Of a DNA stretch of 64,000 bases, positions 23,162-39,790 are shown piece by piece. This stretch comes from Fistulifera solaris. Lineage: Eukaryota. The DNA lies in the NCBI GenBank assembly GCA_030295235.1, contig AP026135.1, positions 992,001 to 1,056,000 on the forward strand. Reading direction: 5' to 3'. The position numbers were made by a program, and so were the translations under genes. The notes beneath the pieces were generated by a model, which did not search any database, was not told the origin of the DNA, and saw only the letters and a program-made list of their open reading frames with translations. Every line of letters begins with the position of its first letter. Positions within the stretch are counted from its first letter, which is position 1.

Positions 23162-23588
23162 GAGGAAATGTTGAAGTGGGCCGATTGATGTGGCTGTCTT
23201 AGTTTCACAATAAATGAATCAGAAAACAATTCCTGGAGGAAATCAATATTGACTATGCCGTCATGCAGCTTTCAGTTAGGGTTACGGGATATCATTCAAA
23301 AATTACATAATACGGAGTACTCCGTAGTAGATAGTAAAATTGCAACCAGTCAGACATGAAAACGTGTTTTTCATAAATTGTGAGAGCTTCACTACGGACC
23401 GTCCAACAACTCCTCACCGTAGCGAACGACAAACACAAAAAATACCATCGGCGAGCCCTCTTTATTACTAGCCTCTTACATCACTTTAGTGGTTGCATCT
23501 GTGCGTTGTCGACTCAAGCTAGTCGTGTGGAGTGAGGGAGAACAGGAGACCGAAAGCGTTTATAGTTTTTCACAAGAGCCCGCTCAAC

Positions 23589-24371
23589 ATGAATTCTGTC
23601 ACCACACGTACACTACCGTTGACTCGATCTCTGACGCGATGGCTGCGTCCCACTGCCTTGCGTCCCTTCTCACGCAGGTTTTCCGCCGCTCCGTTACCCA
23701 GCTACGCCGCTGTCGATCATGCGGAAGCGTACGAACGAGCCATGCAGGGTGGCCACGGGCAGCAACTAGCGTTGGCGGCGCTGGAAGGATATGGTAAAGA
23801 CGAACCCGATTTTGATCCCTTCATTGAAGAAGAAATGGCCGAAGACGGTCAAGAGAATGAAGAAGATGACGATTCGGGCTACTATGACGATAACGAAGGT
23901 TCGGGTGTGTTCAATAGCGACGGATCGTTACGACGTGCTCCTTCCGAATTAGCAACGCTGCGGGCGGGGGCACCTGCCGGAGGAATGGTGGCAGTCATTG
24001 AGTTGGCTGGAACACAATATAAAGTCACGACAGATGATTTACTGATAGTAAACAAGCTGAAACCCGTGGAAAAATTCCAACTCGGATCAGTGCATTCGTT
24101 GGATTCTGTCTTACTTTTGAGCACTTCTCATTATACGTTGGTGGGCTTACCTAAAGTGGAAGGTGCAGTTGTTGATGTCATGGTGGAAGAAATCACGAAG
24201 GATGCCAAGGTGATTATCTTCAAAAAGAGGCGGAGAAAGCATTCGCAGCGCAAAAATGGTTTCCGCCGAGAGGTTACCATGCTGCGTGTCTTGGATATTC
24301 GACCTCCGGAACTCCATCAGAAGCAACTTTATCAAGCGAGACCACCACCCACCTTGCCTTCGGATGATTAA
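23589..24371 (+). CDS. rplU: Ribosomal protein bL21, probably mitochondrial
   Basis: AVIELAGTQYKVTTDD and KVIIFKKRRRKHSQRKNGFRREVTMLRV motifs. Arg/Ser/Thr/Leu-rich amphipathic presequence. Confidence 0.9.
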   Translation: MNSVTTRTLPLTRSLTRWLRPTALRPFSRRFSAAPLPSYAAVDHAEAYERAMQGGHGQQLALAALEGYGKDEPDFDPFIEEEMAEDGQENEEDDDSGYYDDNEGSGVFNSDGSLRRAPSELATLRAGAPAGGMVAVIELAGTQYKVTTDDLLIVNKLKPVEKFQLGSVHSLDSVLLLSTSHYTLVGLPKVEGAVVDVMVEEITKDAKVIIFKKRRRKHSQRKNGFRREVTMLRVLDIRPPELHQKQLYQARPPPTLPSDD

Positions 24372-26556: not shown

Positions 26557-27253
26557 GAAGCCATCCAGAGTTTTCCTTTTTCACTTACCTTTATATTGCT
26601 ATGCTATGTCCAAAATATACCGCTACTGAACAAACCGGCTCATTAAGAAGAATAGAAATAGAAGAAAGAATGTCAATAACCCCCCTTTCACCAACAAATT
26701 GTCGAACTATGACTCTGTAGATCGCCGGCATCCAGACGTTTCTGATGATTTCATGAGTGTTTAGGATATAGAAAGCTAGACTATCGTTGTTTTTAGGTTT
26801 TTGTTGGCTATTTTAAGAGCTGAGGTTGCTAGACATTTTGACCCCAATGATGACTATAGGAAAAAGTGTAAGCAACCGTTTGTCATGACTGGATTTCAGT
26901 CATGAATTAAGATTTTAACCTGGAGTCTTGTTCATCACCTCTGTCAGAAAACTTTGTTGTTGCTATGAGACGCTAGTCTCATTCTTAAAATGCACCAAGC
27001 AATTCTTGACGCAGGTCCTCCTCGCGCTGGTACGTTGCAAAGTTGCGTCACGAGGATGAGGAGAGGTCGTCATTATTTAATCAGCGGTATAGCTTTAACC
27101 TTAACGTTGCAAGGACCATTTGCACGGTGCTTATAATTTTGCGAGCCGATGTGGTGCATGTGGCAACAAGATGAATTACAAATACCAGGTACAAGGTATT
27201 GTATCGCAGAGACCGTCGATCATAAATCAAACTTCTATCAAAATTATTTCTAT

Positions 27254-28585
27254 ATGCGTCTTTTGATAACGACGTTTCTTCTATCCGCTGCGGTGGTATC
27301 GTCCGCAAAGACAAAGCGCGAGAGTAGTTCAACGTCGCCGATCGATAAGCTCGAAGATGCTCTTCAATCCGGCAAAACGTCTTTGTTACTGCACAATGAT
27401 AAAACCTCTCATTTAAAATCTGTCCTTCAAAGCAGCTTAAAGCTTGCAGATGGCAGCACTTCCTTGTCAACGACGATCGGTAAACGCGATGAACTTATCA
27501 ACAAAGTTGAAAATATAGTACGGCAATTGAACATGCGACAACTCCTCAACTTGAGTAAAAACTTGACAGAACTGTTGAATGCAGAAACAACTCGGCGGCG
27601 CATCGACAATGCTGTTGCTGGAATGGTGGATTCGATCTCCATGGATTATCTGGATGAAGTTTTTGACGCAGAGACGGTTCTAGCGGCAAGTGAGTCGCAG
27701 CTCGATGAATGGGTGGACAAGCTCATGAGTGATGAAATGGCAAACCTTTCCAAGTTGGAAGTGGCGGTCGTTAGTGGCAGTTCCTGTGTTTCCGTGGAAC
27801 AAGGTGCGCGAGAAGTCCAGCAAGCAATCTTGGATTTTATGCATGATAAGATTGGATTAAAAGACCACGCACAAGGCAGTACCATTGTCTACGAGATGAC
27901 GACCAGTTCCTACGAGCCACCAGCTACCGAAAACGAGCTTCTGGGATCGTGGAAGTGGAGACGATTTATCCCTGAAGATTGGGAACCACTGCTACCTCGA
28001 GGATGGCAAAGTTGGAGGGTTAGAATCCCGTCCTCTTTTCTAAATTTGTTGGGACAAAGTGCTGCCTCGTCCGTGGCATCGCCGCAAACCATTTTTCACC
28101 CCGATACGCGACCAGGCTCCTGCTGGCCTCTCTCTGGCGGACAAGGTTTCGTAACCTTTAGGCTTCCGTATCCCGTACGTGTGTCCGCTGTGAGTATTGA
28201 TCACGTGTCAAGTTTATTGCTTTCAGCAGAACACCACATGAACACTGCCCCGAAAGATGTATCGGTGTATGGATTCCCGGATTGCGATGAAAGCAAGTGC
28301 GAGGGCCTTGGTTTCGACAGCCAAAATCCACTTCTAATCAAACGGCTTTCGTTCGACAGAGAAGGGCCTAGTACGCAAACATTTACTATTGCCGACTCTT
28401 TCGGAAATCAAAATGATGCTTCCGATGAGACGGAGAGCTTGGAAACAGGCTCTTGTTCAATAACAAGTTCGACATGTAGTCCAACTGAAGCAGTCAGTGC
28501 TATTCAGGTGCGGGTCGAAAGCAATTGGGGAAACCCTGCATATACATGCATCTACCGATTTCGTATTCACGGTGAAGCTGCATAA
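27254..28585 (+). CDS. SUN (Sad1/UNC-84) domain protein
   Basis: C-terminal PGSCWP, VSAVSIDHVS, TAPKDVSVYG, QTF and VESNWGNPAYTCIYRFRIHG. Hydrophobic N-terminal leader and a coiled-coil middle region. Confidence 0.9.
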   Translation: MRLLITTFLLSAAVVSSAKTKRESSSTSPIDKLEDALQSGKTSLLLHNDKTSHLKSVLQSSLKLADGSTSLSTTIGKRDELINKVENIVRQLNMRQLLNLSKNLTELLNAETTRRRIDNAVAGMVDSISMDYLDEVFDAETVLAASESQLDEWVDKLMSDEMANLSKLEVAVVSGSSCVSVEQGAREVQQAILDFMHDKIGLKDHAQGSTIVYEMTTSSYEPPATENELLGSWKWRRFIPEDWEPLLPRGWQSWRVRIPSSFLNLLGQSAASSVASPQTIFHPDTRPGSCWPLSGGQGFVTFRLPYPVRVSAVSIDHVSSLLLSAEHHMNTAPKDVSVYGFPDCDESKCEGLGFDSQNPLLIKRLSFDREGPSTQTFTIADSFGNQNDASDETESLETGSCSITSSTCSPTEAVSAIQVRVESNWGNPAYTCIYRFRIHGEAA

Positions 28586-28635
28586 AAGAACTATTTTTAT
28601 GATCTAAAAAAGGTTTTTTAATCGTTTAAATGTGA

Positions 28636-31271
28636 CTAAGAATGCGTTTTGCGTAAAGTTCTAGCGCTGCGAATAGACTTCAAAGCAAGGCGTGTTCGTT
28701 CTTCATGTTGTGCTAACTCAATGTAATGGCGATCTAGCAATCGACCTTGAACTTCGTCGCTAATCTGTTGGCGCGTTTCATCCGCTTTCTTCTGCTGCCA
28801 TTGAGAATGAAGCCGTCGTTCTTTGGCGCGAAAAGCGAGAGACAGGCGTCTACGCCGTTTGCAGTCCTTCAAGTACTCCTCTACGTCACGGTGAGCATCG
28901 CACTCCAACAGAAAGTTCTTGGAATCGATAGCCTGCTGCTCTATTAAATGAATTTGTTCGGTAATTTTTTGCGCGCGAGCTTCTTTGCGTCGGAATTCTA
29001 GTGAAGCACGGTCTCTGGCAGCACAATCATTCCGATACTGCTGGACTTCACGTTGATCTGCAGCGCGCAGTTCTTCGTCTTCGCGATTTTGCTTGAGCTC
29101 TTTATCATGGAGGAGATTCTGTATTTCTCGCTCGTGCATTTTCTGTTTACCTCGAAGTTGAAGTGATTGTCGCCGTTGTTGCTCCAAGTCAGTAAGGTAA
29201 TCCTTCGCGTCACGCTCTCCAGCCCATTTCAAAGCATAGCTTTCGTGTTCCTTTTCTAAAGCAATACTTCGAAGCTCGGCCATGACGTTAGCATGACGTT
29301 CACGCTCTCTGTTACGGAAGGCTAGACTTTCTCGTCGCTCTTGCTGCATACGCTTCGTATAGTTTTCTGCATCCTTTTCCGCAGCCCATTTCAATTCATA
29401 GCTTGCATGTGCTGTTTTCGCTTCCAGACTAGACATTTCAGCTGCAAGTACTCGCTGCTTTCGACTGTGACTATTTCGATTTTGAAGACTTTCACGACGT
29501 TCGCTTGCCAGTCGTAGTTCATACGCTTTCGCATCGCGTTCCCCATCCCACTTTAATGAATAAGATTGATGCTCTGATGCCAACATATCGGCGTAAAGCT
29601 TCTCGTCAAACTCGCGGATGCGTCTACCTTCATTGTTCCGAAATACCAAGCTGTCGCGACGTTTCTTTTTCTCGTTTTCTAGATATAACTCAGCATCTTT
29701 CTCCCCGGACCACTTAAGCACATAGGACTCATGCTCATGGTGTAACGCTTCTGTTGCGACAGCCGCAATCTGTTCACGCTGCTTTTTGGCAAAAGCATTT
29801 CTCTTTTCCAAACTTTGTCGGCGTTCCTCTTGCTGCTTTCGCTGATATGCTTCCGCGTCTCTTTCCCCACTCCATTTGAGCTCATAACTCTCATGCTCAA
29901 TCCTAGCCTGGTTTTCAGCACTCTCAGACATAATCTGTCGTTGCTTTCGATTCTCATCGCCCCGAAAAGCCAAACTTTTTCGTCGTTCCTCTTCTAACTT
30001 GGTTTGATAGGCTTCTGCGTCCTTCTCCCCGCCCATTTCAATTCGTAACTCTTATGCTCCTTCATCATGTTCTCCGACTCCATATCTTTCAAAATCTCAC
30101 GCTGTTTTCGAGCCTCTGCGTTTCGACTAGCTAGGCTCTCTCTGCGAAGTTCTTCAATTTTGCGCTTATAAGCTTCTGCGTCTTTATCGCCCGCTCGTTT
30201 TAATTCAAAGCTTTGGTGCTCGTCGTGAAGCCGCTGTGCCTCGAGTTGAGCGTGTAGTTCTCGGATTCGTCGCGCATCTCCATTACGGAAGGCAAAGCTC
30301 TTACGTCGCTTCTCGTTATTATCTTGGGTAAACTGACGGAGTGCAGCGCTTGCTTCATGGCGCTCTTCAAAGATAGCCTTCTCTTCTTCAATTCGTTGCA
30401 ACTGCAGTTTTCGTTTTCCTTGCCTATAGTTTGCTCGAAGTAATGCACGCGCGGCCATAGACTTACGATGGCGATGCTCTTTGTCCTCCTTCAACCGTTG
30501 TTGCTGATCTCGAAAGCTTTGAGACTTAAACTCAGTCTCTTTTTCTATTTGATGAAGCTTTTTACTGCGTTCGTTCTGTCTACGCTTAGCTCGATCCCGA
30601 CTAAGATGCGATGACAACTCCTTTTCCAACGATATCGCTTGTAAACGAGCCTTGTGTGCAAGTTGGGAGACTTTCTTTGCATCAGCTTTGTTCGCTTTCC
30701 ATCCTTGACGCTCCTGAGCGATCGAAGAAGTCACTTGAACGTGGTTAGCAACCTTTGAAACGTGGGCTGCGCGAAGAGACTGGTTGACACTGATGGCCGC
30801 CTGATTAATCGCATCTTGCGTAGCTTTCACGAGATTACGACGCACAGGAGATTTGATGTTTTGGATGCGCATGACTCGAAGCCTTTCCTGAATACGAGAA
30901 TCGCCTCGATCAATCTTTGTCGGAGTCGCGCTCTTAACTTTTCCCTGATCGGACTCAATGATCTTCCCAAACGGACCATGCACTGAAATCTTACTCGAGT
31001 TGAATGACGTTTTTTTGCTGATCTCGCAAAATGATGAATTGGATGAAGTACTGTCGTTGACTCTGTTCTCACTGTCCGTACTTTGATCAACGTGTAGGAA
31101 CGACTTGCTTACGTTTTCAGATTTGTTGGTTGCGAGGGATGTAGCGCGTGATTCATCTTCCGAATACGAATAGCATAAGCTTCCATCCAGACCATCAATT
31201 AGCGATGTCCCAAAGACGCGACGAGCGCGGGCTTTTTTCTTTCCAGTCGAAGGCGGTATGAGTAATGACAT
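28636..31271 (-). CDS. Long helical protein with exact 54-aa tandem repeats
   Basis: Two ORFs joined by a single G-run frameshift near 30028. The repeat consensus is RRxSLxxRN...EHxSYxLKWxGExDAxxY. Confidence 0.85.
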
Positions 31272-31771
31272 CGTATGATTCGATCACCTCTCGTAACAAC
31301 CAATTATTCCCTCAGTCGTGTAAAAAGGTTTTGATTTGTTCAACAGATAGCTTGTGAAGATATTTTCACTTCAATCTCGATTACCTTTGATGCATTTAGG
31401 TGGTGACGACTAAAAGGATGATGTTGGTGTGTTGCATGCTTTGGTTTCGGTTCATTCGTTTTGGTGAGGCCTAGAGCCATCTGCCTGCGCTATTCATACA
31501 TACAATAATGAATGTAGTATGGATGGATTTTGATTGAGTGTTTCTCTATTACACTTATTCTTTTTAGAGAAACTCTCTGGTGTATAGCTTCTATAGTAAT
31601 ATCATGTCAGAAAAGAAGGATTATATTTAGATATCGTCAAAGCCGTACAAATGCAACATGCAACAGTGAAGGTCGCGCATCGCGCGCGCGATGGATGGAC
31701 TGTCTACGTCACAAAAAGCGCTAATAAGATTTCGAAAACTCCAACGTGCCAACGTGTCACGTCAACGGTCA

Positions 31772-31847: not shown

Positions 31848-32271
31848 CTACAGAAGGACAGTACACAGTGCGTGATTGAGCTTTCGTCATCGAAAGGGTC
31901 ATTCACGAGTAAATAAGGCAAGAAGCAAGAAGAGAAAGGAGTACTTTATTGTCGACACAGAGTGAGAGCCACTCTGTCCCGCCACCTTATTTGTACCAAT
32001 TCCTGCCTGTACACCGCACCCACAAGTCTCCGTTTCTCCTTCCACAAACGCCGACAACACGCATTCGACGACTCCTCGTGGTGAAACGAGCGCAGTAGAG
32101 AAGCTCTGGGATAACCACACATCATCGAAAAGAACGAAGGTTGCACACCTTCTTGTTTGTTATTTTTTATAAAGAAGAGCCTCAGGGCGTCCGTTATGTT
32201 CATAGGACTTTGGTGCTGTTTGTATCAATAGAAGCTGTTGGAGAAAAGAGGCATCCGAGTTGCTCGACTGC

Positions 32272-34983
32272 ATGTCCAATATGATTCCTCCTAATGTGTC
32301 GATAGATAATCCTCAAACGCTGTCTTCCTCCACCAGTGACAGCCCAGGAAAATCTTCTCCTGTAGCTGGATTGATGGATCCGGAAAAACAGGACAGCGTT
32401 GTTGATACTTTAGGGGAAGCTTTAGCGGGTGTGAGTCTCCTTTCCCAAAGTGGTTCCACTATGGGTTCCGCTGCCTTTGCAGGATCTTCGCTGGCAGCAA
32501 CCTCAAAACCTTCTACGCAAGATAACGATGGTTGGGGTAACTTTACGGATCATTCGAACGCCAATTCTTCTGGAGTGTTTCCTCCGTCTGTAGGAATCTC
32601 TACATCAACATCTAACGTAGAGAATGAGCAAGATAGTATCCGCCGATTTCTTTCGCAGGACCCCTCTCAGAGTCTTGGTGACGATGTTTTTCGCTTGAGC
32701 CACACCAATCTCCCGTCTTTGAACTATGATCCGTCGGGTAATGATGCGGCCAATGTGTTCCGTTATCCAGGGCAAGGAACGGCTCTCGGCTCGGCTAGCA
32801 AGAACACTTACGGTAACATCCACGCTACACAAGAACCTAGAGACTCTCCAATCGGTACAGGAACCACGGCATCGAGTCGTTCGGCGTCTCCTTATACAAA
32901 CAACCATGACATTGGAGGCGGAGCTCACAGTATCCCGGCGTACCAACAGTACACAAGTGACAGTAGTAACTTTAGCCGAAACCACACGTTTGTTGACGAT
33001 GAGCACTCTACTGCTGCCTTCCACTCTCTTTCAACGCGTGGGTCGTCGACGAACCTTTCTGGATTAGAAAGATCTACCTACAGTAAACCGGGGAACTATG
33101 GAGGATCTTTACCTTATGATCAAGCATTGGATCCATCGTACTCGCCGCAAGTTCCTGATAGCACGCCACAGCAACAACCACAAGTGCTCTACATGGCAGT
33201 ACCTGCACCTGATGGCAGAGGACAAGTCTTGCAACCCGTGCAGATGCTTCAAGTACCAGGAAAGCCATACAGTTATGTGGTTCCTAATGCTCCGAGCAAC
33301 CCCTCTGGTGGACCCTTTTTCCAGCAGGAACTACCGCATCAGAAGCCTATGGTTGTTTTGCCTCTAAACACAGGCGACTACACAGACCCTTCCATCGATT
33401 CACAACTCGGTTTTGGCACCGAAACGGTACCCATGCGTCCTTTGAACGCATCCGGCGGCGACGACTACGCAGCTGCCAGCGCCCTTGGCCTTAGTCAGTT
33501 CCAGACCACCGATCCCATCTTAGGCGGCCAATTCACGGGCACGTCGCAGCGTCCTCCTTTGGAAGCGTTACTGGGGCAAGTTCGTCGACTTTCTCGTGAC
33601 CAAGTCGGTTGCAGGCTCGTGCAGCAAGCTTTGGACGAGGAAGGCCCAACTGCTGCGACTTTGATCTTGAACGAAGGACTTCCCTTCTGGGGTGAAGCGA
33701 TGGTAGACCCCTTTGGAAACTACCTATTCCAGAAGATCTTAGAGAAGGTCACACCCGAAGAACGTATCATGCTAATCAAGAGCGTCAGTTCTCGTCTTGT
33801 CAACGCAAGCTTGAATCTTCATGGCACTCGTAGCGTCCAGAAAGTCGTTGAGCTATGTGCCATCGACGATCAACTAAGCCCGGCTGATAAGGGCATCGAG
33901 ACAGAGTCCGCCGCACAAGTTCTAACCAACGCGCTTGCACCAGCTGCTGCGCGGTTGTGCATTGATAGCCACGGCAATCATGTCATTCAACGAATTTTGC
34001 TGAAACTCGATCCACGTCATTCCAAATTTGTCTTTGACGCAGTTGCAGCTAGCGTTGGCGATGTGGCACGTCATCGCCACGGATGTTGCGTCATTCAGCG
34101 TTGCCTCGACTCCCCGCAGAATGAATCGCGTGCAAATCTTGTTCTGCGTATCGTAGACAAGTCTCTGGAGTTGATGCAGGACGCGTACGGAAATTACGTT
34201 GTCCAATACGTTTTGGACGTATGCTCGGATGAAGACGTCCAAGCAGTTTGTGAGAGCGTTGCCGGAAAAGTTAATTTGCTTGCTATCCAAAAGTTCAGTT
34301 CTAATGTAATGGAGAAATGTCTCGAACGTTGCTCGGATAGAGTGAAAGCAATGTATCTTGCCGAAATGAGCGACCCGGAAAGAATCCGCGAGTTGATGAT
34401 GGACCCCTTTGGCAACTATGTGGTACAGCGCGCGTTGTCAGTCGCAACGCACGAACAAGCTATTCGGTTGGTAGAGGCTATGCGCCCCCACTTGATAGCG
34501 ACACAAACCGGTAACGGGCAACGCAACGGAGGTGTTCGAAACACAGCCGGAGGTCGTCGCATCGTTGCCAAAATCTGTCGTCGCTTTCCTAATTTTACTC
34601 TTAATCCAGTTGGATCGATCGATGAGCTGTACAGTCAAAACAGGAGCAGTCGCCATGCTGTGCAACACTCTCATGGTCATGCTGTACAGCATTCTCACGG
34701 TCATCCTGTTCAACATGCGCACGGCCACCCTATCCAGCACCACCACGGTCATAATGGTCAACACAGTCGCGGTCACCAGGTAGCTCACCATCAACAGCAA
34801 CAGCCGGCTCTGCTTCAATCGTACACTGCTGTCGGAGGACCTGTGGCCCCTAATCACCATTTCAACGATCCGCGCATGACATCAGGGCATTTGCAACCCG
34901 CTCAGTCGCAGCAACCGTTCTACGGTTTCGGCGGGACAGATAATTATTACGACCCGTTCAACAGCGGCCATGGAGGGTATTAG
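32272..34983 (+). CDS. Pumilio/PUF RNA-binding protein
   Basis: PUF repeats LSRDQVGCRLVQQAL, DPFGNYLFQKIL, HGTRSVQKVV, DSHGNHVIQRIL, HGCCVIQRCL, DAYGNYVVQYVL, QKFSSNVMEKCL and DPFGNYVVQRAL, after a long disordered N-terminus. Confidence 0.95.
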   Translation: MSNMIPPNVSIDNPQTLSSSTSDSPGKSSPVAGLMDPEKQDSVVDTLGEALAGVSLLSQSGSTMGSAAFAGSSLAATSKPSTQDNDGWGNFTDHSNANSSGVFPPSVGISTSTSNVENEQDSIRRFLSQDPSQSLGDDVFRLSHTNLPSLNYDPSGNDAANVFRYPGQGTALGSASKNTYGNIHATQEPRDSPIGTGTTASSRSASPYTNNHDIGGGAHSIPAYQQYTSDSSNFSRNHTFVDDEHSTAAFHSLSTRGSSTNLSGLERSTYSKPGNYGGSLPYDQALDPSYSPQVPDSTPQQQPQVLYMAVPAPDGRGQVLQPVQMLQVPGKPYSYVVPNAPSNPSGGPFFQQELPHQKPMVVLPLNTGDYTDPSIDSQLGFGTETVPMRPLNASGGDDYAAASALGLSQFQTTDPILGGQFTGTSQRPPLEALLGQVRRLSRDQVGCRLVQQALDEEGPTAATLILNEGLPFWGEAMVDPFGNYLFQKILEKVTPEERIMLIKSVSSRLVNASLNLHGTRSVQKVVELCAIDDQLSPADKGIETESAAQVLTNALAPAAARLCIDSHGNHVIQRILLKLDPRHSKFVFDAVAASVGDVARHRHGCCVIQRCLDSPQNESRANLVLRIVDKSLELMQDAYGNYVVQYVLDVCSDEDVQAVCESVAGKVNLLAIQKFSSNVMEKCLERCSDRVKAMYLAEMSDPERIRELMMDPFGNYVVQRALSVATHEQAIRLVEAMRPHLIATQTGNGQRNGGVRNTAGGRRIVAKICRRFPNFTLNPVGSIDELYSQNRSSRHAVQHSHGHAVQHSHGHPVQHAHGHPIQHHHGHNGQHSRGHQVAHHQQQQPALLQSYTAVGGPVAPNHHFNDPRMTSGHLQPAQSQQPFYGFGGTDNYYDPFNSGHGGY

Positions 34984-37643: not shown

Positions 37644-39790
37644 CTAGAGCACGAGCATGTCGTGGGGCTGCGACGTACCAAGGGAACGAGTGGAGAGCTC
37701 TTCACCGCCACCGCCAACTTGCTCCGTCACGTCATTGATGAGCTTCGTATCCAACTGGAGTGTGCCGTTATGAGGATCATGAAAAATTTGATTGACAAAC
37801 CGATATCCGACGCATAAATCACTAAAATCATAGGCATGTTGAGCAGAAACGGTACTGACGTCGGCGTTTGACGTGCCAACCATATTGACCAATATCTGGT
37901 CGAAATGTATAGCGTCACGAACTTGTTGATGCGAATTCAACTGCTTTGGCCAATATCCTTGATTCAGTCGCATTAACTGACGAGCGTGAGCTTTGAGCAA
38001 AGGCGAACTTACGTTCAATTCATGTCGGAGAATCCAAGTACGTTTGAAGAACGGGTGATCCGGTGCCTCCACTTCTAATTTTGCGAAAATTCGCCGAGGG
38101 ACCAAATGTCCTGTAGGATCTTCATCAATGGCGTGATTACTGGTCTTGCTCAGTGACACAGACCTCATGAACCCACCTAAAGAAAGGGGCTCGACGCGAG
38201 GTGAGGACGGGCCAAGATCAGTCTCGAGAGTCGAGCTTTTCTTCCCTGCATGATTCATGCGCCGAATTTTCTTCTTCTTCCCGCCTCCTTTCCTTCTCAT
38301 ATTCTTACTACTTGCAAGTGTGGGACACGCTTGACTAGCATCGATACTGGCTATAATATTGACAGTGGCGTCAATGATTTCACCGCCCGCAATCGTGTGT
38401 AGGCGATTGTTGATTCGAAACTCCATGATAGGAGGAGGAATACGCTCCACATGTTCGTCAAGCTCCAAAGTATTGTCTTCCATTTCCGGGTCATCCTTCT
38501 CACGTTCCTCCTTATCGATGCTGACTCCACTGCCGTAGCGAATCACAATCGGGTCACTGAAATTAACTTGCGCAAATGACTGAATGCGGGCCACCTTGGC
38601 CACCAGAATCGCTCCACACATACTGGCAAACAATATTCCGGTAAAAGCCTCCATGGTAATAAAGATCGTCATGCCCACACACTTCCACCGATCAGGTTCG
38701 GTTGCTGACACTGCCGGATGCACTACACCATAACCAACGGAACAAAAGGTCGTCCAACTCAGCGAGTAAGAGTCCATGAAGGTCCCTCCTTCGGGCCCTC
38801 CGAAGTCCGTCCCCACGCCGCCGATACAAGTGGGTTGTTGTTGCGCAATAATATAAATGATAAGCGCAAAGAATAAGGTCAAACTGAAGAAAATGAGAGA
38901 GATTGAGAGCAGCACATGCATGAATCGACTCCGAAAGGTCCAATGCAGATATCTGACTACTTGTTCGTTGGGTTGTATGCCAAAACACGAACAAGAGCCA
39001 TGCTGCTCCCCGGTCGATTCGTAGACGGCTAGATGCTGATCCGGAATTCCGAGCTTTTTTAAAAGCTTCCAGTCATTTTTTCGAGTCGGCTGAGTGTTTT
39101 AATCACAAAAGTTAGAGAAATGTTGGTCTTTGCAACAGTGTTGTTCGTTCAGAACGGGAAAGACCTACCCGTATTGTCGCTAATGTATATTGACGGGGCC
39201 CAATGGACGATGATTCGGTGATATCGGGTCGAGAAGGAGCATTCCGCAACTGCCGTGTCGAAACAAAGAATCGACCGTGCGATGATATTTGATTGAATAC
39301 TGCGCTCCGTTCACTGTTGTTTTCGTCTGGGAAGGAGTGCGTCTCGGTGGCTGTTTTGTCGCGAGTGAAAAAATGAAGAAAATGCCGTTTGATTCTTGCA
39401 GCATGGCTTTGCGGAAAAGCTTCTTGGTTCGAGCGGATCTTCGAGAGAAGCATCAATAACAATTACAACCATTGAATGGGAATGGATGAGTGTCGAAGCT
39501 GAATGGATGAATAAAACTTCAGCAAATACATCTCTCACTCTTACCAATGCCGAATGAATTCGAGTTTTTCTTCTATTTCGTGTATCCAAATCAGCACTAC
39601 CGTTGTTGTTTTTATGAAGCTTATGTTTGTTGGAGTTGGTGTCTTCATTGACGAGAGATGAAAAGCGTTTTCGGGGCGCATCCTCTTCAACAGTCTCTGT
39701 GTTAAGTCCAGATTCAACATCATGATGAGAATCGTTCTCTTTGCCGTTCTCTTGATCGACCCGCTCAACGAATGAGCCTTGTCTCCGCAT
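37644..39790 (-). CDS. Inward-rectifier (Kir/IRK family) potassium channel, paralog 1
   Basis: TM1, pore SWTTFCSVGYG, TM2 ITMEAFTGILFASMCGAIL, then the cytoplasmic domain FSDPIVI, IMEFRINNR, WILRHELNVSSPL and YRFVN. Two 5' introns (donors near 39544 and 39168). Confidence 0.85.

Follow-up and report, generated by a model that had tools for sequence, protein, structure and literature searches.

Why would a protein keep a repeat of exactly 54 residues, unit after unit and across species? The question is raised by a gene on the minus strand of a 64,000-nucleotide stretch of the diatom Fistulifera solaris (GenBank assembly GCA_030295235.1, contig AP026135.1, positions 992,001 to 1,056,000; hereafter the window, whose numbering is used throughout). 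The gene encodes eleven consecutive 54-residue units that are predicted to form one long alpha-helix, and a first-pass annotation of the window had read the product as a candidate ruler of the microtubule lattice. We find that the period is exact in the window and nearly invariant in an apparently undescribed family of diatom and Triparma proteins, and we weigh what such a helix may bind.

The gene is interrupted in the window, where two overlapping stop-to-stop open reading frames (ORFs) on the minus strand, 29994..31283(-) and 28636..30051(-), meet near 30000-30050. The annotation had attributed this to one frameshift in a G-run that needed repair, and contigs of four public runs, compared with window positions 28600-31300, bear it out: in run X1, a 318-nt contig carries one extra C behind position 30026, with a depth of 17.2/17.2 and no other difference from the window. 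With the base restored, 878/878 residues of the read-through agree with P0283, a public protein named 'hypothetical protein FisN_25Lh103 [Fistulifera solaris]', and the read-through aligns gap-free to the second Fistulifera solaris copy, FisN_25Hh103 (797/878 identical). The missing base falls in unit 3 (29986-30146), and joining ...YELKWAG to EKDAEAY... at the break preserves the 54-residue step; the close relatives P0251 and P0121 are uninterrupted at this position (KWAGEKDAEAY and KWAGEKDTEAY). Because the X1 contig has the extra C and the read-through equals the public protein, we conclude that the frameshift is not biological and that the gene is real and intact. Elsewhere in the window, apparent frameshifts at homopolymers may also reflect assembly artefacts instead of pseudogenes. 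Across 28600-31300, run X1 contains two sequence versions, one equal to the window and the other differing from it at 13-23 positions per 218-264 bases, which fits two diverged gene copies in one organism; the 'L' and 'H' copies in the public protein set are 91% identical.

The period itself is visible in the positions of a short anchor motif, R-R-x-S-hydrophobic. The upstream ORF has HRKSM, RRKSF and RRESL at residues 272, 326 and 380, and the downstream ORF has RRKSL, RRQSL, RRDSL, RRESL, RRESL, RRQSL, DRASL and RRLSL at residues 23, 77 and onward to 401. All eleven anchors named in the annotation were thus present on the minus strand, spaced exactly 54 residues apart with the break included, and the units begin at 30470, 30308, 30146, 29985, 29823, 29661, 29499, 29337, 29175, 29013 and 28851. 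In 2000 shuffles the motif occurred 0.23 times on average and never more than 3 times, compared with 11 times in the protein. The self-identity of residues 268-861 was 0.365 at lag 54, 0.346 at lag 108 and 0.324 at lag 162, against a background of 0.082 +/- 0.013 at other lags (z = 21 for lag 54); the neighbouring lags 53 and 55 gave 0.085 and 0.080. Prolines were limited to residues 6, 7, 100, 117 and 142, leaving the repeats free of them as the annotation had stated, and its core consensus was reproduced as RRxSLAFRN...EHxSYELKWxGERDAExY.

The visual likeness of RRxSLAFRN to EHxSYELKW (S-hydrophobic-x-hydrophobic-basic) had prompted the idea of a 25/29-residue sub-repeat that would match tubulin monomers. 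We dropped this idea, as self-identity at lags 25, 27 and 29 (0.079, 0.060 and 0.087) did not rise above the background of 0.082. At the DNA level, Tandem Repeats Finder returned 0 rows. Since the DNA copies have diverged past detection by that program, the array must be old and maintained at the protein level.

We looked for the same unit in other proteins. A word-seeded search with the downstream ORF (8000 scored candidates) found 243 proteins at E <= 0.001; the best 120 of these 243 reach at most 52% identity and are all called 'hypothetical', and the named ones come from diatoms (Cyclotella, Epithemia, Amphora, Attheya and Thalassiosira-type transcriptomes). A ten-unit profile from the window, run against 1.84 billion representative proteins, matched 193 at E <= 0.001, including 132 at <= 1e-10 and 77 at <= 1e-30. 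Further members came from Fistulifera solaris, Triparma laevis f. inornata, Conticribra weissflogii, Thalassiosira punctigera, Amphora coffeiformis, Thalassionema nitzschioides, Cyclotella cryptica, Cyclostephanos tholiformis, Triparma strigata and T. laevis f. longispina, and the family occurs in MMETSP transcriptome assemblies. Most matches are unnamed metagenome proteins, so that the lineage range rests on the named members, all of which carry a 'hypothetical' annotation and are diatoms or belong to the sister-group genus Triparma (Parmales). The family may be specific to this lineage, with others possible through the metagenome proteins. A named orthologue from Phaeodactylum or Thalassiosira pseudonana was not found among the matches listed.

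The spacing is kept throughout these proteins. Among the best 120 homologues, 771/778 anchor-to-anchor intervals were multiples of 54 and 705 were exactly 54. In an enlarged set of 238 homologues with at least three anchors each, 1466/1485 intervals were multiples of 54 (1343 exactly 54, 19 other), and 167 of the 178 proteins with at least four anchors had all anchors in one register modulo 54. Unit length therefore did not vary among homologues in the way that would have spoken against the annotation. The register holds in P0149 of Triparma laevis and in the divergent protein P0224, and it holds there through units that have EAAD[YF] or ERADY in place of RRxS[LF]. Proline accounted for 24/88,668 residues in 1642 register-defined units, and some of these prolines come from P0224 and P0254, in a Pro-rich insert that has the look of an error in the gene model.

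Searches for a characterised relative returned nothing. Pfam-A gave 0 families at E <= 1 for either window ORF and, for eight homologues at E <= 0.1, scattered sub-threshold fragments (VbhA, PH_FT_C, Mto2_bdg, SDE2 and others) with 0 stretches passing; we took the named fragments as composition noise. Against PDB sequences, the unit profile had one match (E = 1.8), and a full-length relative had a ribosomal protein as its best match (E = 0.027) and otherwise yibL alone at E <= 1. The first of the two structure models described below gave 0 Foldseek matches in the PDB at E <= 10, and the best ESM Atlas match (0.76) was below a useful level. The UniRef source name of P0019 carries a TPH (Trichohyalin-plectin-homology) label, which we rejected, as P0019 and the window ORFs have 0 Pfam families. 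In P0299 (Thalassiosira exigua, 1138 amino acids), AAA/MCM-type Pfam domains are joined to the repeat region, probably in a merged gene model. Literature searches found no paper on a diatom 54-residue or 54 amino acid repeat, and those on diatom spindle or microtubule-associated protein (MAP) localisation returned non-diatom work only. Judged by these searches the family is undescribed, with no characterised family matching it, in line with the annotation, which had not recognised it.

The units are not all alike. Five of units 2-8, aligned to unit 8, were 41-48% identical to it, and in the close relative P0251 units 2-8 shared 22-29/54 residues in pairwise comparison. The end units are far more divergent from the reference unit, and each has its own counterpart in other species: unit 1 pairs one-to-one with the first unit of P0001 (28/54 identical), and units 9-11 each match solely the equivalent one of the last three units in the five diatom homologues compared. 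Overall, Fistulifera units 1, 2 and 8-11 have one equivalent unit each in other diatoms, and units 3-7 are mutually interchangeable. The array therefore has ends that are fixed and, between them, canonical units in variable number.

Outside the array, Ser and Thr make up 25% of residues 1-140, and residues 141-267 (127 residues) contain 28 K+R and 14 D+E. In most family members the C-terminus is a conserved A(I/L)RHA(G/N)C(S/T)F..NPF tail, as seen in P0149 and P0224; NPF is an EH-domain-binding motif. The Fistulifera proteins, including that of the window, are without the AIRHAxCSF..NPF ending.

What fold does such a unit adopt? We obtained two AlphaFold2 (AF2) models. The first, of the downstream ORF with an 86-row alignment (mean predicted local distance difference test score, pLDDT, 76.6; predicted template modelling score 0.26), has helices at residues 8-242 and 279-465 of that ORF. 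The second, of the full-length protein with a 101-row alignment (mean pLDDT 64.2), shows disorder to about residue 125 (residues 1-122 have pLDDT mostly <50 and are without secondary structure) and a helix over residues 145-872 that has breaks of low confidence at 249-251, 406-460, 580-593 and 707-709. Residues 650-685, where the first model breaks, form helix in the second, and the breaks of the second are not shared by the first; every array residue is helical in at least one model. Because the positions differ between the models, we take the breaks to have arisen because the program folded up an over-long helix, and not to be features of the protein.

Sequence covariation, used as an independent test, pointed the same way. 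Mean-field direct coupling analysis (DCA) of 1464 distinct double units (108 columns, Meff 1076) placed 48 of the 60 strongest couplings at a separation of 3 or 4, although such separations make up 3.6% of column pairs, and the long-range pairs among these 60 were three at separation 54, with no others. Helical-type pairs crossed Asn9/Gly12 (9-12), Gly40 (37-41, 38-41, 40-43 and 40-44) and the unit border (53-57). Like charges were depleted at i+3 (z = -3.8) and i+4 (z = -3.2), and Gly and Ala alternate at column 12 (39/32%) and column 40 (57/30%). The two models, the couplings, the charge depletion and the Gly/Ala alternation together favour an essentially continuous alpha-helix through the repeat region, as the annotation had proposed, and make a hairpin, a solenoid or an antiparallel bundle unlikely.

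These data bear most directly on the possibility that the array is a string of small folded domains, each a helical hairpin or beta-alpha unit with breaks at N9/G12 and G40. Conserved Asn or Gly at columns 9, 12 and 40 would suit such breaks, as would the alternating S-L-A-F-R / S-Y-E-L-K-W pattern and the fact that the top hydrophobic harmonic has a period near 2. However, both models run helical through columns 9, 12 and 40, the couplings at 9-12, 37-41, 38-41 and 40-43/44 are of the helical type with no long-range pairs of the hairpin type, Gly exchanges with Ala at columns 12 and 40, and proline is virtually absent. We regard an array of folded domains as very improbable.

The helix also does not resemble a canonical coiled coil in that it lacks a hydrophobic seam: 37% of column shuffles equalled the 3.6-residue hydrophobicity harmonic, and the hydrophobic residues, which account for 21%, point to opposite faces (L5 at 140 degrees, F7 at 340, Y34 at 160, L36 at 0 and W38 at 200). 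One explanation is a free spacer or tether of the single alpha-helix (SAH) type, in which the repeats set length and stiffness and there is no periodic partner. The long predicted helix, a charged fraction of 44% and the avoidance of like charges at i+3 and i+4 agree with this. Classic SAHs have a very high E/K/R content, well above 44%, and are enriched in i,i+4 opposite-charge pairs, which was not the case here (z = 0.79 at i+4; z = 1.96 at i+3). Moreover, a spacer would need neither the exact 54-residue phase nor invariant Arg, Ser, Tyr and Trp positions nor position-specific end units, and we give the spacer explanation little credence.

The most constrained part of the unit is the R-R-x-S site. 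In 1250 register-defined units, Arg occupied column 1 in 84% and column 2 in 99%, Ser column 4 in 97%, a hydrophobic residue column 5 in 96% and Arg column 8 in 97%, percentages that are slightly inflated by the choice of the first and last unit of each protein by motif. At column 4, Thr was found in 0.1%, and Asp was the next commonest residue after Ser (25 units). Columns 1 and 4 were the top DCA pair by a wide margin (6.2 and 5.9 in the two copies vs 3.3 for the next pair). This coupling is evident in the units themselves: [RKH]-R was present at columns 1-2 in 1111 of the 1217 distinct units with Ser at column 4, and in 3 of the 27 with Asp, which usually read E-R-x-D, although units from one protein or from closely related ones do not count as independent. 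Judged by eye, the Asp units form about nine sequence groups, of which three keep RR.

A basophilic kinase site (PKA/AGC/CaMK/Aurora-type) has Arg at -3 and/or -2, a Ser acceptor and a hydrophobic residue at +1; the R-R-x-S site has these features, and all 11 window units fit, two of them with H or D at -3. The annotation had called RRxS a kinase consensus, and this reading as a candidate basophilic site gains support because the -3 Arg and the Ser coevolve and replacement of the Ser by Asp goes with loss of the -3 Arg, as would be expected of a residue read by the kinase once a fixed negative charge stands in for the acceptor. Exchange of Asp or Glu with phospho-Ser is said to have been described as an evolutionary pattern by Pearlman et al. 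in 2011. As an alternative, Ser and Asp at column 4 may act as helix-capping or packing residues. The main text of a diatom phosphoproteome (PMC7408324) contained 0 mentions of motif, RxxS, RRxS, basophilic or PKA, and one Phaeodactylum supplement of that study had 0 matches for five unit peptides, with R-R-x-S tryptic peptides of about 6 residues being easily missed. Two 'SFAFR' matches in the same supplement were discarded, as both lie in an unrelated CDK7-like protein.

We then considered what surface the helix would present. With 3.6 residues to a turn and a rise of 0.15 nm per residue, as in an ideal alpha-helix, 54 residues make 15 turns over 8.1 nm, and an array of 594 residues would extend for about 89 nm. 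Within the unit, charge falls into two blocks, net +4.3 in columns 1-16 and net -3.7 in columns 17-54, with the basic block centred on the anchor Ser. The most conserved sector is that at 0-80 degrees (S4, R8, E11, S33, L36, G40, A44 and Y47), a stripe of small and aromatic residues, and in the column consensus Y34, W38 and R/K42 form an aromatic-Trp-basic triad on one helical face.

We tentatively propose, in a weakened form of what the annotation had suggested, that the rod docks lengthwise on a straight lattice with an 8-nm repeat, likeliest a microtubule protofilament, and that each unit carries one kinase-operated release site. Because 54 residues equal 15 turns of an ideal helix, the same surface would return in phase at steps of 8.1 nm, made up of a basic patch (columns 1-16) with R-R-x-S at its centre, the stripe, and an acidic remainder. 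One unit could then contact each tubulin dimer along a protofilament, like tandem MAP7- or stathmin-type helices, and a basophilic kinase that phosphorylates the Ser in each basic patch would weaken docking unit by unit. We know of no straight partner with an 8-nm repeat other than the microtubule protofilament. We infer the partner, the phosphorylation and its effect.

A more specific form of the proposal is a longitudinal microtubule strap particular to diatoms and their sister group, which would span about eleven consecutive dimers of one protofilament, carry a kinase release switch per module and act on the extranuclear central spindle bundles; we consider it possible but somewhat doubtful that all of this holds. 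In diatoms and Triparma alike, the central spindle is described as a bundled interpolar one that forms outside the nucleus (PMC12351369), a trait that is compatible with the microtubule idea and is not evidence for it.

Several observations weigh against docking on microtubules. Conserved columns are spread round the helix, with sector means of 2.14, 1.91, 1.73 and 1.52 bits, and 7.1% of column shuffles reach the 3.6-residue conservation harmonic. The repeat region is near charge-neutral (134 K+R vs 119 D+E), and the microtubule-binding helices known to us are markedly basic. Real alpha-helices have about 3.6-3.63 residues per turn, which makes 'exactly in phase' an idealisation. In the annotation's simple picture, every unit presents the same face to the lattice; the spread of conservation and the near-neutral charge both weaken it. 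Unit number also varies: in proteins of >700 residues the first-to-last-anchor span covered 6-11 units, mostly 8-10, with one outlier at 3, in a count that depends on the regular expression and undercounts degenerate end units. This variation argues against a fixed-length ruler, and that word in the annotation was too strong. A role as an axonemal inner protein is unlikely, because the family occurs in pennate diatoms, which to our knowledge are without flagella.

Conservation on all sides of the helix would suit rods that bind one another, and such self-assembly is the first of two further explanations for the surface. Parallel rods, packed side by side and staggered by about half a unit, would place basic opposite acidic blocks and give a filament or a paracrystal whose axial period is 8 nm and which phosphorylation would disassemble, as it does myosin rods and lamins. 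The alternation of charge blocks at the 54-residue period (+4.3 / -3.7) suits this arrangement, and the strict lack of indels is what a register-keeping rod would need. The missing hydrophobic seam, with a harmonic that 37% of shuffles reach and 21% hydrophobic residues, speaks against it, as does the finding that the top 60 DCA couplings include none near separation 27 and no antiparallel pattern, although an in-register parallel pair would be invisible there. On balance we think a self-assembling fibre rather unlikely.

The second explanation is that the helix is a scaffold wrapped once or twice per unit by a small partner under control of the Ser, such as an EF-hand light chain or a centrin-like protein, as in Sfi1 or the myosin lever arm. 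This would account for all-round conservation that includes the aromatic anchors F7, Y34, W38 and Y47, and a continuous helix is typical of such scaffolds. The consensus, however, fits neither pattern known for them. The Sfi1 motif is [FL]xxW[KR] at a spacing of about 33 residues, whereas W38 has Glu at -3 and Ala at +1. The IQ motif, IQxxxRGxxxR, needs 5 residues where L5 to R8 gives 3. A wrapped scaffold accordingly seems to us distinctly unlikely, and we retain docking on a microtubule protofilament as the tentative preference, though it too is less likely than not.

The features of the gene and its surroundings are collected in Table 1. As the annotation had noted, the 3' end of the repeat gene converges on an ORF with a Sad1/UNC (SUN) C-terminal domain, with 50 bases between the stops; a functional link between the two is not apparent. 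The Pumilio-family ORF on the other side is divergently transcribed relative to the repeat gene. The L21-domain ORF has a 150-residue extension ahead of the domain and is probably organelle-targeted.

Table 1. The repeat gene, its parts and neighbouring ORFs, in window coordinates.
Feature	Position	Strand	Remarks
Single-exon coding sequence, 878-amino-acid protein	28639..31271	-	Stop codon 28636-28638; window one base short; from ORFs and match to P0283
Residues 1-140, Ser/Thr-rich N-terminus, predicted disordered	30852..31271	-	Conserved family motifs KARRVFG and SLxYSPSP
Residues 141-267, basic helical segment outside repeats	30471..30851	-	AF2 helix from residue 145 on
Array of eleven 54-residue units, residues 268-861	28690..30470	-	Proline-free
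Unit 1 (HRKSM), degenerate, position-specific across species	30309..30470	-	17% identity to reference unit
Units 2-8, canonical, RRxS[LF]AFRN..R..EHxSYELKWxGE+DAExY	29176..30308	-	
Units 9-11 (RRQSL, DRASL, RRLSL), degenerate, position-specific	28690..29175	-	19-24% identity to reference unit
C-run (G-run on coding strand), one base short in window, source of apparent frameshift	30027..30030		
C-terminal tail, 17 residues, basic	28639..28689	-	K+R 5, D+E 0
Convergent Sad1/UNC (SUN) ORF	27137-28585	+	E = 4.2e-23
925-amino-acid ORF, six Pumilio-family RNA-binding repeats	32206-34983	+	PF00806, E = 4.5e-56
ORF with bacterial-type ribosomal protein L21 domain	23523-24371	+	E = 1.4e-25
ORF with weak ion-transport-domain match	37644-39098	-	E = 2.2e-4, below Pfam cut-off

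Diatom mitosis and wall morphogenesis depend on unusually ordered microtubule arrays, for which very few lineage-specific components are known. Because its repeat length is unchanged across the divergence of diatoms and Parmales, the protein can be put to the test as a candidate lattice-matched component of the cytoskeleton. Regardless of the partner, it offers a clean natural case of a phase-locked unit, with 15 turns per 54 residues, and of a candidate phospho-acceptor that coevolves with its kinase-recognition Arg and is replaced by Asp in several lineages. Should it prove to bind the microtubule, its architecture would be new among the few MAPs that bind as lattice-matched helices; if the strap form of the proposal is true, it would present MAP7- or stathmin-type helices in a tandem array for the first time and would supply a graded multi-site phospho-rheostat for lattice binding.

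Tandem helical modules matched to a polymer's subunit repeat or axial stagger are found in nebulin-type proteins and in charge-periodic rods such as myosin. The modules of nebulin, of about 35 residues, vary in length and are matched to actin, whereas the unit described here is invariant at 54 residues (1466/1485 intervals) and 8.1 nm is not the actin repeat. Among microtubule binders, three published cases use lattice-matched helices and give the docking idea real precedents. Of these, MAP9 is reported to form a continuous helix of about 300 Angstrom with five PhiXXWXXXK pseudo-repeats 35-36 residues apart, a spacing that follows the lateral spacing of protofilaments (PMC12667982). Y34-x3-W38-x3-[RK]42, on one helical face of the unit, recalls this motif. 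The spacing here is 54 instead of 35-36, and the aromatic residue stands at W-4 instead of W-3; with a consensus of Y-E-L-K-W-x-G-E-[RK], the unit does not contain the PhiXXWXXXK pattern at MAP9 spacing and is not homologous to it.

Stathmin sequesters curved soluble tubulin. Its stathmin-like domain is described as a long helix that lies alongside two head-to-tail tubulin dimers, and the protein as negatively regulated by phosphorylation of conserved serines (PMC11238091). A long helix with a Ser phospho-switch is the logic that we propose for the repeat protein, but stathmin spans two dimers, and the rod described here is about five times longer with one site per unit. There was no Pfam match to stathmin for the window ORFs or the eight homologues, and no stathmin chain among the PDB matches at E <= 1.

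There is a likeness in length to MAP7 (ensconsin), whose microtubule-binding domain is described as a single 53-residue alpha-helix, lying parallel to the microtubule axis and about one tubulin dimer long (PMC8985661). The Pfam results for the window ORFs (E <= 1) and the eight homologues (E <= 0.1) contain no sign of MAP7 homology. The likeness lies in the dimensions, a 53-residue helix in MAP7 and a predicted helical unit of 54 residues here. The difference lies in number and in standing: MAP7 has one such helix on the microtubule, whereas the Fistulifera protein has eleven tandem units in phase, for which binding is what we propose.

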